A stretch of DNA of 64,000 nt. Source: Myxococcales bacterium (GTDB lineage: Bacteria > Myxococcota > Kuafuiibacteriia > Kuafuiibacteriales > Kuafuiibacteriaceae). The stretch lies in NCBI GenBank assembly GCA_019634385.1, contig JAHQVK010000050.1:20072-84071 (forward strand), written 5' to 3'. This document shows positions 53,471-57,727 of this stretch, one piece after another. The notes beneath the pieces are model-generated. The model saw only the letters and a program-made list of their open reading frames with translations. It did no database searches and was not told the DNA's origin. The stretch's first letter is position 1, and every line of letters starts with the position of its first letter. A program made the translations under genes and the position numbers.

Positions 53471-55285
53471 TCACAGTGGAGGATATGCATTCTCCATTAG
53501 TTCCTCAAACTGCGCTTCGAACCAAGCGCCGGAAATAGGGGCATTTGGCAGAGCATTTGTCGTAGTGAACCCACTTCGTGCATTCCCACCATAAGTCGGG
53601 TCGCACATCCGGTCGAAACCTTTGCCGTCCTCGTTAGGAATCAGTGACGACGAGCCATCAGATTCACCCGGTGGTTTGATCCAAACGAATGCATCAAATC
53701 CAGGCGCTGGACTTGCCTGGGGACGCTCACCCATGCCAGCCCCAGACTGGTTACACCAATTACCCGCATGCGTTCGACGATCTATACGCCGGCCTTCAAC
53801 ACTACCTCCATCGCCTGAGGGTCGACTAGAACCACCCCAACCATTGCGGCTTGTATCTATCAGCATACCAATATCACTTGGCATCCCTCTGCTTACCAAT
53901 TCGTTGCGAAAATCGAATGCAAAAGTCAATTCATCAGCATACATATTCCAGTCAAGCCACGGCGACTGACGGTCCGCAAGCGACAAGGGGAAACTTATAT
54001 ATGGTTCCTCAAGCGCAGAATAGTTGGCTGTATTGGTAATAAATCCTGCCAGTCCGGCCCCATTAGTTTGACTGTAACTCACTACATTAGCCAAAAGCTC
54101 CGCGGCCGGGCCGAAGTTGGTATCCCATCCGATCCAACCATGATGTGCTGCATCGATATAAGAATAGACATTTGGGATATCATAGGCATCTAATGCATAA
54201 GCGATCCCTTCACCATATACACCACCTGGTGCTGAACTTGCTGCCAAGACATCCGAGCAGAGTTGCGTACCTCCGGCTTGGCCACTTGTATTGGTTACCA
54301 AGTTCGGGAGTGAATCAATTTCAAGGACACTAACGATACGAAGTGGAACATATTTAGGATCGCTAATAATATTGGCAATCTCGTCGATATACTCCGACTT
54401 GTAGCGGGGCAATTCGTCAATCCCCAGCTCTCCATTAGAAGCAAGAGCAGCACAATCACGAGCGGGTAGATTGTAGGTTACAAACTGAAACACAAATGGT
54501 CCACCACCCGCCTCTTGCTGCTGCACTAGTGCTTCATCTAGGTGATCTCGGAGCCCCATAGGCCCATTAGACTGGCTATTGGCCGTACCCGCAATAGCTG
54601 CAATTCGGTCCAACCATACTGCCGTAGGCACATTAGAGACCCGGCTACCGCCAGCTACAGACTCTGCCTTAGCGCTCCATTCTGGATTCACATACCAGCC
54701 AGAGACGCCAGAATAAGGATTGTCTTGTCTTGACTCATATTCACCAGGGTCCACCGGCTCAGGCGTAGGCCCGGGCTCAGGCATAGGCTCGGGCTCAGGC
54801 TCAGGCTCAGGCTCAGGCTCAGGCTCAGGCTCAGGCTCAGGCTCAGGCTCAGGCATAGGCTCGGGCTCAGGCACTAGCTGCCCTCCACATGCCACCCCAT
54901 TGATGGCAAAGGACCCCGGAACCGGTGTTGAACTACCGCTTTTCGCCCCAATGAACCCAAGACTGACCGACCCACCCGGTGAAATAGTGCCGTTCCAGGC
55001 CTCGTTCGTTACTCGTACCAACTGACCGGAACCCGACTGAGTAAAGCTACCATTCCATCCCTGAACAACCGATTGTGTTGCAGGCAACGAAAATGTAAGT
55101 TCCCAGCCATTAAATGAGCTGGATCCAGTATTCTGAATAGTTATGTTCCCTTGAAAGCCTGCGCCCCAAGAGCTCACTACGGTGTAATCAACTTCACAAG
55201 AGAGTTGAGCTGATGCCGAAGAGGCGGCAAAACTCATACCTGCTACAGCGATTCCACTGCTGGCCAATCTAAATATATTTTTCAT
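53471..55285 (-). CDS. Secreted cellulase: N-terminal CBM2 cellulose-binding module, Pro/Glu-rich linker, GH6 catalytic domain
   Basis: Signal peptide. CBM2 ([25 protein letters not shown]...NGVAC). (PE)n linker. GH6 blocks including [16 protein letters not shown]. Confidence 0.8.
54754..54880. repeat. Hexanucleotide tandem repeat (ggctca)n encoding the PEPEPE linker
   Basis: Perfect (ggctca) units, at least 11 of them, seen directly. Confidence 0.8.
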
Positions 55286-55666
55286 ATATTTCTATACCTT
55301 CCAAAATTTGCGCATGCCTCTTTGGCTAACGCAGTCCTATAATTGTATACATCTGTAAACTAGCAAATATTGTATCGTTCGCACCACAGAACGCATAGCG
55401 TAAACATGCCCACTAAATGGGCGCATCTGTCGAAGGCACGCGACACAAGAGTATGATGCGTTCTGGCCAAAGCGCAAGACATACTCGCTATGTCCACTAA
55501 GAATGGCAACATCATAGTTACGCATGTCGATTAACGTGTCCTCGGTCTTCACTTTCGAATGCAGAATTGCACAACACATGTGCGTAGAAGAACTCCCGCA
55601 CCCTAAGCGACTGTTGTGGCTCTATCCGTAATTCTCAGTAGTGCCTCAACCAGGTCAATCTCCAGG

Positions 55667-55778
55667 TTAACCATATACAGCAAAGACTCCTTGAATTGAT
55701 TCTGTAAGAATCAACAAGGAGTCGCGCAGCAGGGCATTGCCCCGCTGCGAAGCTGGAACTTGGGTTCAACCCAAGTTC
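55667..55778 (+). repeat. MITE-like structured repeat, copy D (full length)
   Basis: tACAGCAAAGactccttgaattgattctgtaagaatcaacaaggagtcgcgcagcagggcattgccccgctgcg...ggaacttgggttcaacccaagttctTTCTGCTGTa. Confidence 0.85.
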
Positions 55779-56071
55779 TTTCTGCTGTAAAGGTATCGCT
55801 CGGCCTACTCTTCACCTGAGGTATGTCTTTTACGTCGGAGGTGCTCTATGACTCGCCCCCAATTAGCGAAATGTCCGGCGACCTGCGATCCCCCGTCTTG
55901 CTGCTAGCCTCTCCTTCAACTCGCTATGACCAACCTCGATCCGAGTAAAACATTCAGGTAAACCAAGGTATTTCGCAATAGTTCTACGCGGACCTTAAAG
56001 ACACGCCATAGTGAGGAATACTCCTCCATCAGTGATAGAGGAGTATTTGAACCACAAAATTAACCCACCTC

Positions 56072-57727
56072 TTACCGGTAGAGACGATAGATAGTGCCAC
56101 CATCTGTGAGAATATAGATCGATCCGTCTGGAGCTTCGGACAACTCTCGAAAACGAACATTCATATCCTCAAACATTTTGGTTTCGCTGATCACCGCTTC
56201 ACCATCCAACGTAAGACGTGAAATATGTCGCCCTGCCAACGCACCTACGAATAGGTTCCCTTTCCATTCGGGAAACATATTCCCTCGATAAAAAATCATC
56301 CCTGATGGGGCTATAGACGGCGTCCAGTAGTGGATCGGCTCTATGAAACCCTGTCCTGCATGGTCATCCGGAATCTGTTCTCCATTGTAATGGCTTCCAT
56401 AACAAGCTAACGGCCAACCATAGTTTTCACCTGCTCGCGGAATATTAACCTCGTCCCCACCTTGAGGACCATGTTCATGATTCCATATCTTTCCGGTTGT
56501 TGGATGAACAGCCATTCCCTGAATATTGCGATGCCCATAAGACCAGATTTCTGGCCTTGCATTTGCTTGATTCACAAACGGATTATCATTGGGAACCTGA
56601 CCATCAGGATGGATGCGGATGATCGTTCCAAGATGGTTATTGATATTCTGAGCTTGATCATACTCAAAATATTCGCCGAGGCCGATAAATAGATGCCCAT
56701 CCTCGTGGAATGCCAATCGACAGCCATAGTGAAGACCCCCTCCTCCTATTTTGGTGGCAGTAAATATTACCATCCAGTCCTGTAATCGCGCCCCATCAAA
56801 ACGAGCGCGGGCCACCTCCGTTCCCGACTGATTTCCCTCTTCTCCAGCGTAACAAAAGTATACATATTGATCTTGGGCAAAGGTTGGACCAACCAATACA
56901 TCCAGCAGTCCTCCTTGACCTTCCGCCTCAATATTAGGCAATCCGGCTAACGGGGAAGACAGCATGTGGTCGTTACCCAAAAGGCGAAGATTTCCCACCT
57001 TCTCTGTCACTAGAGCGCGACCATCAGGTAAGAAATCCAAGCCCCATGGCCAACTCAGACCATCAACAACCACCGCCATCTGAGGCTCTCCAGTTGGTAC
57101 TGGTTCGGGGACTGGCTCCGGTTCGGGGACTGGCTCCGGTTCAGGGACTGGCTCCGGTTCAGGGACTGGCTCCGGTTCAGGGACTGGCTCCGGTTCGGGG
57201 ACTGGTTCCGGTTCGGGGACTGGCTCCGGTTCGGGGACTGGTTCCGGTTCGGGGACTGGTTCCGGTTCGGGGACTGGTTCCGGTTCGGGGACTGGTTCCG
57301 GTTCGGGGACTGGCTCCGGTTCGGACGCACCGCAGCGCACACCATTGACCACAAACATTGCGGGCACGTTGGATGAGCTGCCATTTGACGCTCCAATAAA
57401 TCCTGGACTAACTGATCCACCGGAAGGAATATTGCTATTCCAAGACTCATGGGTTACAGTGACCATCTGTGATGAACTTGATTGCTCAAACTGTCCCGCC
57501 CACCCCTGAACAATAGATTGGGTCTCAGGCAATAGAAATTCTAACTGCCAATTAGTTATCGCATTAGATCCAGTATTTTTAATAGTTATCTGACCTTGAA
57601 AACCGCTATTCCAAGAGTTCATGATCCTATAATCAACATCACAAGAAACTTGAGCCCACGTCGGCGAGGTAGCAAAGATCATCCCAACCGCCGTCAGTCC
57701 CGTGTGGACTACCCTAAATATATTCAT
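56072..57727 (-). CDS. Secreted CBM2-(EPEPVP)n-PQQ-dependent soluble sugar (aldose) dehydrogenase (GSDH/YliI-like six-bladed propeller)
   Basis: Signal peptide. CBM2 ([25 protein letters not shown]...NGVRC). 20x EPEPVP linker. GSDH blocks [42 protein letters not shown] and [17 protein letters not shown]...[11 protein letters not shown] match the YliI/Asd family. Confidence 0.75.
57098..57325. repeat. 18-bp tandem repeat (ggttcggggactggctcc)n encoding the (EPEPVP)n linker
   Basis: About 12 near-identical units seen directly. They generate spurious repeat ORFs on both strands. Confidence 0.85.

Follow-up and report, generated by a model that had tools for sequence, protein, structure and literature searches.

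Two adjacent CBM2 genes and their products

This study concerns a gene in a stretch of 64,000 nucleotides (hereafter "the window", with positions counted from its first letter) of contig JAHQVK010000050.1, which belongs to the metagenome-assembled genome (MAG) of a Myxococcales bacterium (assembly GCA_019634385.1). Its product joins a family 2 carbohydrate-binding module (CBM2) through a proline- and glutamate-rich linker to a six-bladed propeller of the glucose/sorbosone dehydrogenase family (GSDH), and beside it lies a second CBM2 gene, for a cellulase of glycoside hydrolase family 6 (GH6) (table 1). A sequence-only reading of the window had described two neighboring genes on one strand for secreted proteins, each with a CBM2 and a Pro/Glu linker, one ending in a cellulase and the other in a dehydrogenase of the YliI/Asd type dependent on pyrroloquinoline quinone (PQQ), and had listed no pqq gene and no gene for a lytic polysaccharide monooxygenase (LPMO) of family AA10. 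This description was borne out. The two open reading frames (ORFs) lie exactly where they had been placed, both on the minus strand; each product opens with a Sec-type signal peptide, as read from the sequence; both linkers are present and are tandem repeats at the DNA level; and in a Pfam scan of about 40 ORFs of the window neither LPMO_10, PqqB/C/D/E nor cytochrome c was found. The only CxxCH motif of the window was within a shadow ORF, with none in real genes.

The C-terminal domain of the dehydrogenase matched the GSDH profile PF07995 from position 2 to 331 of 332, with 437.5 bits against a cutoff of 25. By phmmer, the nearest chains in the PDB were 7cdy and 7cgz, entered as "glucose dehydrogenase" (3.9e-99), and Asd/YliI of Escherichia coli (2g8s, 2.1e-84), with further matches to proteins of Thermus (2ism), Pyrobaculum (3a9g) and Streptomyces (3das); the soluble glucose dehydrogenase (sGDH) of Acinetobacter was more distant. 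Each of these structures is an aldose or glucose dehydrogenase that depends on PQQ. The propeller is 46-55% identical to the crystallized 7cdy, and a profile of 20 sequences found 7cdy at 4e-138 and Asd at 8e-130. With NCBIfam TIGR03606, which represents the Acinetobacter-type sGDH-B, the score was only 107.4 bits, far under the cutoff of 434.55, which places the protein in the Asd clade and not in the sGDH-B clade. Based on these comparisons, the dehydrogenase is assigned to the clade of E. coli Asd/YliI, in agreement with the type first proposed for it. An AlphaFold2 model was built on the 20-sequence GSDH alignment, and its predicted local distance difference test (pLDDT) was mostly above 90 for residues 215-551. 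Foldseek superposed the model on 7cdy with a template modeling (TM) score of 0.92 and a root-mean-square deviation (rmsd) of 2.1, and on 2g8s with a TM score of 0.91, so that the propeller fold is predicted with confidence. The CBM2 and the linker were poorly modeled because the alignment held no homologues for them, which is a limit of the input and not evidence against the CBM2.

The active site was compared by phmmer alignments to sGDH (1c9u and 5min, in which the chain numbering equals the published numbering), Asd and 7cdy, with the roles of the sGDH residues taken as described (PMC6881789). The catalytic base His144 of sGDH corresponds to H333, within GGLHYGCRL, which aligns with HFGGRL of Asd and 7cdy. 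The PQQ-binding residues Arg228-Asn229-x-Gln231 and Arg406/Arg408 correspond to R400-N401-I-Q403 and R525/R527, respectively. Gly247-Pro248, which contribute to the calcium site through main-chain carbonyls, correspond to G420-P421 within an EHGP motif like that of Asd and 7cdy, the sequence alignment setting E418-H419-G420-P421 against E-Q246-G247-P248 of sGDH. H333, RNxQ, EHGP and R525/R527 were all invariant or nearly so in the 20-sequence alignment. At the position of Lys377, which forms an ion pair with the C7 carboxylate of PQQ, the protein has Ala498; 7cdy also has Ala there, and E. coli Asd has Lys. Thus, as judged by sequence alignment, the PQQ and Ca2+ ligands on which the proposed activity depends are all kept except the equivalent of Lys377.

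The signal peptide of the dehydrogenase is homologous to that of the GH6 protein, their alignment beginning at residue 2. It is not a lipobox signal; Cys29 aligns with the disulfide Cys8 of the Cex CBM2a. The module that follows matched the full CBM_2 profile (1-101) with 89.2 bits against a cutoff of 24, and it thus passed the Pfam model as the sequence-only reading would have it; phmmer aligned it to the CBM2a of Cellulomonas fimi Cex (1exg) at 9.4e-18, with W17, W54 and W72 of Cex and both disulfide Cys all aligned. In the Cex module, the three are surface tryptophans and the Cys pair forms the terminal disulfide. Considering that all five residues are conserved, the module is assigned to type a, and it would bind crystalline cellulose or chitin. 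The DNA of the linker consists of 12.4 copies of an 18-bp unit with a 97% match (57102-57324; Tandem Repeats Finder), although the assembled copy number of this unit is unreliable, while the GH6 linker consists of 19.5 copies of a 6-bp unit with 82% matches (54756-54872). The far greater homogeneity of the GSDH linker suggests a recent expansion or concerted evolution.

In the GH6 protein, Pfam recognized CBM_2 (residues 30-133, E=2.2e-28) and Glyco_hydro_6 (residues 207-551, E=1.2e-85), so that the CBM2-bearing cellulase expected next door was indeed present. Its alignment to Cel6B (E3) of Thermobifida fusca (4b4f) reached 1.5e-158 across the whole 420-residue catalytic domain. The Asp of EIDSLPN, replaced by Ala in chain 4avo with no other difference, is retained, and we take it to be the catalytic acid Asp274 of Cel6B. 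Based on the full-length alignment and the retained Asp, the enzyme is predicted to be an exo-type cellobiohydrolase of the Cel6B type, which would act from the nonreducing end and release cellobiose. Its full-length CBM2-GH6 relatives (55-60% identity, 95-100% coverage) were almost all from Micromonosporaceae. The GC content at third codon positions (GC3) of the gene is 0.435, slightly under the norm of the window (about 0.48-0.57), and the MAG has about 51% GC; a recent transfer from Actinobacteria was rejected on this composition. The GH6 gene therefore appears to be of actinobacterial type, yet not a recent import.

Table 1. Features of the CBM2 gene pair and copies of the dispersed repeat in the window
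Feature	Position	Strand	Residues	Basis and remarks
CBM2a-linker-GSDH gene	56072..57727	-	551 aa	ORF, Pfam CBM_2 and GSDH
Sec-type signal peptide of GSDH protein	57653..57727	-	1-25	Read from sequence; predicted cleavage between TWA and QV, after residue 25
CBM2 module of GSDH protein, type a (predicted)	57332..57643	-	29-132	Pfam PF00553, 2.5e-25
(PEPEPV)n linker of GSDH protein	57089..57328	-	134-213	Tandem repeat; disordered in model, pLDDT <70
GSDH six-bladed propeller	56087..57055	-	225-547	Pfam 4.6e-131; key residues H333, R400-N401-x-Q403, E418-H419-G420-P421, R525/R527
CBM2a-linker-GH6 gene (predicted Cel6B/E3-type cellobiohydrolase)	53471..55285	-	604 aa	ORF, Pfam and alignment to 4b4f
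CBM2 of GH6 protein	54887..55198	-	30-133	Pfam 2.2e-28; paralogue of the GSDH-gene CBM2
GH6 catalytic domain	53474..54730	-	186-604	End-to-end with residues 2-420 of 4b4f
Repeat of about 112 nt, between the two genes	55677..55792	+
Repeat of about 112 nt, upstream of GSDH gene	58322..58436	+
Repeat of about 112 nt, downstream of GH6 gene	53236..53347	-		With terminator-like hairpin
Repeat of about 112 nt, further full copy	8861-8970	+
Repeat of about 112 nt, further full copy	38298-38408	+
Repeat of about 112 nt, partial copy	58084-58123
Repeat of about 112 nt, partial copy	39932-39976

The gap between the two genes measures 786 bp and holds no convincing ORF; the promoter-like and terminator-like matches in it were weak and occurred at chance frequency. 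Since this gap holds a repeat element, an operon is unsupported, and the GH6 and GSDH genes, although adjacent, probably do not share one. The surrounding genes include housekeeping functions (SpoVR, SbcCD, Der, Era, RNase III, MnmA, SurE, ATP synthase gamma, Mpl, and DnaG), several Ser/Thr and histidine kinases, a Kelch/DUF4215 protein, and two fasciclin proteins. Because these neighbors are housekeeping or regulatory, the pair is a small islet outside any cluster of carbohydrate-active enzyme (CAZyme) genes. Moreover, the pairing is not conserved: no cellulase was found beside the nearest GSDH homologues (contexts of P0003 and P0005) and no GSDH beside the nearest GH6 homologues (contexts of P0272 and P0270).

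Some further properties of the window were recorded. GC3 was lower (0.417-0.438) in the GH6 gene, the GSDH gene and the adjoining SDR epimerase gene (53471-59393) than in the other genes of the window (about 0.47-0.58), a mild sign that this stretch of about 6 kb had a distinct history or expression level. An ORF at 31897-33294 (minus strand; 465 aa; NAD-dependent epimerase/NmrA-like domain) had GC 0.658 and GC3 0.687, against about 0.52 elsewhere in the window; its N-terminal 170 residues or so had no Pfam match, and it overlaps a DUF72 ORF (33017-33898) by about 280 nt. This compositional outlier is possibly foreign DNA or has a mis-called start. At 44213-46237 (minus strand; 674 aa), five DUF4215 repeats, a myxobacterial Cys-rich type, are combined with a Kelch beta-propeller, and the gene adjoins an FHA-GAF histidine kinase and a Ser/Thr kinase. 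Five ORFs of 159-670 aa had no Pfam match at a cutoff of E<=1e-3 or 1e-4: 14361-16325 and 25627-26319 on the plus strand, 26390-27823 on the minus strand, 37772-38251 on the plus strand, and 46234-48246 on the minus strand.

Rarity, origin and integrity of the fusion

A HMMER scan of 1.84 billion cluster representatives (50% identity) returned 39,955 matches, and the best 150 of them, all of at least 274 bits, were examined; no match to the CBM2 region was found among these 150. The best 120-150 GSDH matches listed were mostly single-domain proteins. None of the 20 multi-domain representatives taken from the best 150 carried a CBM2 by Pfam; 6 of the 20 had an N-terminal cytochrome c, and others had RTX, LRR/Ig or CARDB modules. 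The six with a cytochrome c (Cytochrome_CBB3 or Cytochrom_C: P0197, P0231, P0233, P0243, P0245, and P0250) are natural quinohaemoprotein versions of the Asd clade. In species-representative genomes, the best 80 of at least 598 loci matched the query over residues ~180-551 only, and no CBM2 was found within 10 kb of these 80. When genome contigs were scanned with the full protein, no relative turned up, and the source MAG is therefore not one of the GTDB species representatives. A scan of metagenome contigs with the CBM2-GSDH protein gave only a GSDH of 39% identity, and a word-index search with the CBM2 module alone gave two candidates sharing words, neither of which scored. The CBM2 fusion thus looks rare inside the Asd clade. 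The sequence-only reading had called such a protein unusual in bacteria, which holds for the best 150 representatives and 80 loci but has to be narrowed on account of a cyanobacterial CBM2-GSDH protein and of precedents in Teredinibacter, which are considered below.

From the signal peptide through the CBM2 to the start of the linker, the products of the two genes are 61% identical (1e-84), and at the DNA level the identity is 66.6% over 302 nt. When both CBM2s were used as tblastn queries, no other CBM2 module was found in the window. Each of the two matches the other better than any CBM2 from the 120 nearest GH6 homologues (134 bits vs. at most 102), and a neighbor-joining tree of 42 CBM2s groups them as sisters with a bootstrap support of 96/100. 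Since the N-terminal module of the GSDH gene is paralogous to that of its neighbor, a duplication of the signal-CBM2-linker module within this lineage is probable. No CBM2 is present in the proteins with the most similar GSDH domains (P0001 with 69% identity, the others with 53-63%; two of them annotated as Myxococcota MAGs); most of these begin with a lipobox-like signal that ends in Cys and continue with an acidic/proline tether of 50-90 residues. Given sister CBM2s on the one hand and CBM2-free lipoproteins as nearest relatives on the other, the most economical history would be that a native tethered GSDH lipoprotein exchanged its lipid anchor for a copy of the signal-CBM2-linker of the cellulase. 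On that history, the locus is a clear example of domain shuffling, in which a lipid anchor was swapped for a CBM2 anchor taken from the module of the adjacent gene.

It has to be asked whether the fusion was instead produced by the assembler, with a CBM2-linker half and a linker-GSDH half from two genes (for example, a native lipoprotein-tether-GSDH and a CBM2-linker-glycosidase) joined through a common (PEPEPV)n repeat. The join crosses a tandem repeat of 223 bp with 97% identity and an 18-bp unit, which exceeds typical short reads, and because this period is divisible by three an in-register join would keep the frame. GSDH relatives possess Pro/acidic tethers of their own, and the fusion is known from a single MAG contig: neither the exact GSDH nor the exact GH6 protein is on record, near-identical database matches are likewise lacking, and in an independent Logan assembly (run SRR12681089) no contig crosses 53305-58408 of the window. 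Nevertheless, the Logan breaks sit in copies of the dispersed 112-nt repeat, outside the linker. In the window, the 18-bp unit is confined to this linker (the GH6 linker matches it at only 60-69%), GC and GC3 are uniform between the CBM2 and GSDH halves (0.425 and 0.424), and the sister relationship to the CBM2 of the adjacent gene fits a local duplication. We consider a chimera very unlikely on this evidence, and the CBM2-GSDH protein is treated here as a real, cleanly built fusion.

The Logan contigs matched the flanks of the islet at 99.9% identity; one (L088) ends at 53305 and another (L086) begins at 58408, each inside a repeat copy, and the two other mapped ends (8830 and ~38330) are in or beside copies as well. 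Since all four mapped ends lie in or near copies, the breaks are explained by the dispersed repeat and not by the islet. This intergenic element of about 112 nt has 77-88% identity between copies, and its copies bracket both CBM2 genes. Its predicted structure is a closing stem ACAGCA...UGCUGU around three hairpins, with a T-rich run after the last; RNAalifold predicted -39.6 kcal/mol, with compensatory changes in three pairs, and no match was found in Rfam. The element could be of the type of repetitive extragenic palindromes or miniature inverted-repeat transposable elements (REP/MITE-like), or else a small RNA or terminator module specific to the lineage. As to database records, ten proteins of the window were looked up, and eight of them have exact counterparts in an NCBI MAG entered as "Myxococcales bacterium" (MBX2810897-MBX2810934; contig of 159,316 bp). 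NCBI numbers Mpl as MBX2810928 and the epimerase as MBX2810931, which leaves two numbers for the two CBM2 genes; their unmatched records may reflect different annotated starts or missing entries.

Possible function of the dehydrogenase

Based on its architecture and active site, we hypothesized that the CBM2-GSDH protein is secreted and tethered to cellulose and that, as an aldose dehydrogenase of the Asd/YliI clade dependent on PQQ and Ca2+, it oxidizes sugars at the cellulose surface; we regard this as probably correct. The protein would pass the outer membrane and bind cellulose, the CBM2a keeping it on the crystalline substrate while the long flexible linker would let the propeller sweep the surface. 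PQQ would be loaded from outside or made by genes elsewhere in the genome. The propeller would then oxidize C1 of reducing sugars, such as cellobiose from the GH6 enzyme, cellodextrins and glucose, to aldonolactones; Asd-type enzymes are described as broad in their aldose specificity (PMC13088180). Candidates for the acceptor that would reoxidize the PQQH2 formed are c-type cytochromes, quinones and possibly LPMOs. The N-terminal cytochrome c that takes the position of the CBM2 in several representatives suggests that c-type cytochromes are the usual partners of the Asd-type family. Such a protein would be a functional counterpart in bacteria of fungal cellobiose or pyranose dehydrogenase, with possible gains in relieving the exocellulase from inhibition by cellobiose, in converting free sugars to aldonic acids, and in feeding extracellular redox chemistry. 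The sequence-only reading had offered two roles, oxidation of released sugars on cellulose and partnership with an LPMO, of which the former is better supported.

Several observations weigh against this hypothesis. The equivalent of the PQQ-pairing Lys377 is Ala498; the crystallized 7cdy has Ala there as well, whereas E. coli Asd has Lys. The Km of E. coli Asd for glucose is very high, and the physiological substrates of the Asd clade are uncertain; CBM2a modules, in addition, can bind chitin as well as cellulose. Neither pqq genes nor genes for a PQQ transporter, a cytochrome c or an LPMO were found within the window, and the 786-bp gap together with the separate flanking repeats leaves co-transcription with the GH6 gene without support. 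Moreover, annotation alone can mislead, as the Teredinibacter turnerae domain discussed below illustrates by analogy, although that domain is only distantly GSDH-like.

Other readings of the protein were weighed against the same data. Its dedicated role might be that of a redox partner of an AA10 LPMO, reducing Cu(II) directly or via a mediator or cytochrome, or supplying H2O2. This would follow the logic of the fungal pyranose dehydrogenase CcPDH, in which a PQQ dehydrogenase is combined with a cellulose-binding module and loss of the CBM1 cut LPMO activation (PMC5960967), and which reductants serve bacterial LPMOs in nature is still an open question (PMC8981238); a CBM2a is present here and a cellulase adjoins. 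The absence of an AA10 gene from the window speaks against it, as does the lack of a cytochrome domain, considering that CcPDH relies on its AA8 cytochrome domain and was nearly inactive toward LPMO after its removal (PMC5960967); besides, the protein is not AA12 by sequence and is distant from AA12 by fold. We therefore think LPMO partnership unlikely. In a bolder version, the protein would be a minimal bacterial counterpart of cellobiose or pyranose dehydrogenase, made by adding a duplicate of the exocellulase module to an Asd-type PQQ dehydrogenase that once had a lipid anchor; it would oxidize cellobiose or cellodextrins and, without any cytochrome domain, pass electrons or H2O2 to AA10 LPMOs or another extracellular oxidant encoded elsewhere in the genome, and to this we would likewise give little credence. 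No evidence obtained here ties the protein to LPMOs, and any such link is speculative.

Less likely still is a target other than plant cellulose, namely chitin, a fungal or arthropod glycan, or the bacterial cellulose of prey biofilms, within a predatory or saprophytic secretome. The CBM2 matches in the PDB do include the chitinase-associated 6bt9, 2rtt and 6f7e, and a Myxococcales MAG with a housekeeping and regulatory neighborhood and no large CAZyme island would suit such a lifestyle; the best CBM2 matches, on the other hand, were cellulose-binding 2a modules of the Cex/CenA type, and the sister module is carried by a GH6 exocellulase, a family specific for cellulose. Least probable of all, in our judgment, is that the propeller is inactive or does not use PQQ and serves as a binding module or with another cofactor. 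The CBM-linked PQQ-like domain of T. turnerae (pf08450-X173) showed neither PQQ binding nor activity (PMC10916295), the vertebrate HHIP proteins have the same fold by profile and Foldseek, and the substitution at the Lys377 position could be taken in the same sense. Against this, the protein keeps the remaining PQQ, calcium and catalytic residues, which do not vary in the clade, the profile matched the crystallized PQQ enzymes 7cdy and Asd with the E-values given above, and 7cdy has the same Ala. Oxidation of sugars at the cellulose surface by an active Asd-type enzyme is accordingly the reading that we prefer, and the protein is a plausible extracellular sugar oxidizer and a reasonable candidate for action on cellulose surfaces.

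Both the electron supply to bacterial LPMOs and the extracellular oxidation of sugars during cellulose breakdown are poorly known. Among bacterial candidates with a PQQ-like domain, the one studied most, from Teredinibacter, did not bind PQQ. With two domains, a canonical active site and an exocellulase neighbor, the protein described here is tractable for testing a bacterial analogue of cellobiose dehydrogenase. If it did feed LPMOs, it would belong to the natural reductant systems long sought for these enzymes in bacteria; if it oxidized only free sugars, it would be a modest addition to the CAZyme-associated redox enzymes.

Comparison with known systems

The sequence-only reading had also drawn an analogy to the fungal AA12 dehydrogenases, and this stood in part. 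No AA12 chain of the PDB was found at E<=0.001 with the single sequence or at E<=1 with the 20-sequence profile. In Foldseek, CcPDH (6jt5) and TrAA12 (6h7t) appeared at ranks 31-34, with TM scores of 0.59-0.60 and 14-17% identity. Membership in CAZy family AA12 was rejected, as there was no sequence match even with the profile and these TM scores compare with 0.91-0.92 for the Asd-type enzymes. Therefore, the likeness is one of fold and outline, without detectable sequence kinship and without a cytochrome domain, and only in outline may the CBM2-GSDH protein work like an AA12-CBM1 enzyme. Both CcPDH (AA8-AA12-CBM1) and the AA12 enzyme of Trichoderma reesei are secreted PQQ/Ca2+ six-bladed propellers, and CcPDH, which is able to drive LPMOs (PMC5960967, PMC6881789), joins the propeller to a cellulose-binding module, as does the protein here. 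In CcPDH, however, that module is a CBM1 at the C-terminus, whereas here it is a CBM2 at the N-terminus, and the AA8 cytochrome that CcPDH needs for LPMO activation has no equivalent here, where Pfam recognized CBM_2 and GSDH only.

Among bacteria, CBM-tagged PQQ sugar dehydrogenases are a kind that has already been noted and is biochemically uncharacterized, and the protein described here joins them; in the literature searched, no characterized bacterial CBM2-Asd-type enzyme was found and none shown to drive an LPMO. The same domain content is reported for the exoprotein A3MYDRAFT_4958 of a cyanobacterial biofilm, a glucose/sorbosone dehydrogenase bearing a CBM2 (PMC4937211). It shares GSDH and CBM2 at the Pfam/CAZy level and was detected extracellularly, but it comes from another phylum, and the comparison is one of reported domain content and not of sequence. 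A GSDH was among the most abundant proteins in the secretome of Streptomyces scabiei on cellulose plus suberin (PMC4567563), and a 2026 preprint described six-bladed PQQ enzymes resembling AA12 that were found in the CAZyme gene clusters of 400 genomes (10.64898/2026.07.10.737718). The "PQQ" met in the literature on Herbivorax saccincola was set aside, being only a prefix of accession numbers.

CBM-linked PQQ-like domains are also known in T. turnerae (PMC10916295, PMC12055684). Its proteins TERTU_3803 and TERTU_2567, and Cbp2D and Cbp2E of Cellvibrio japonicus, have been proposed as LPMO partners (PMC10916295, PMC12055684, PMC8981238). As is predicted for the protein here, they are secreted and combine cellulose-binding modules (CBM2, CBM10, and CBM5) with putative redox domains. 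They are, however, large proteins of many domains, which include c-type cytochrome (X183/X132) or YceI-like (X158) domains, whereas the protein here has just two domains, its active site is canonical for the Asd type, and it lacks a haem motif.

The neighboring cellulase has the same N-terminal CBM2-linker-GH6 order as Cel6B of T. fusca and the CBM2-GH6 enzymes of Micromonosporaceae, but it is encoded in a Myxococcales MAG. With regard to the dehydrogenase itself, the nearest known systems are Asd/YliI (2G8S) and 7CDY/7CGZ, with which it shares PF07995, the catalytic His, the RNxQ, EHGP and RxR motifs, and TM scores of 0.91-0.92; at the position of the PQQ-carboxylate Lys of E. coli Asd it differs from that enzyme in having Ala, as 7cdy also does. 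Those enzymes are single-domain and periplasmic, whereas the protein here adds a CBM2a and an 80-residue PE linker and is presumably exported.

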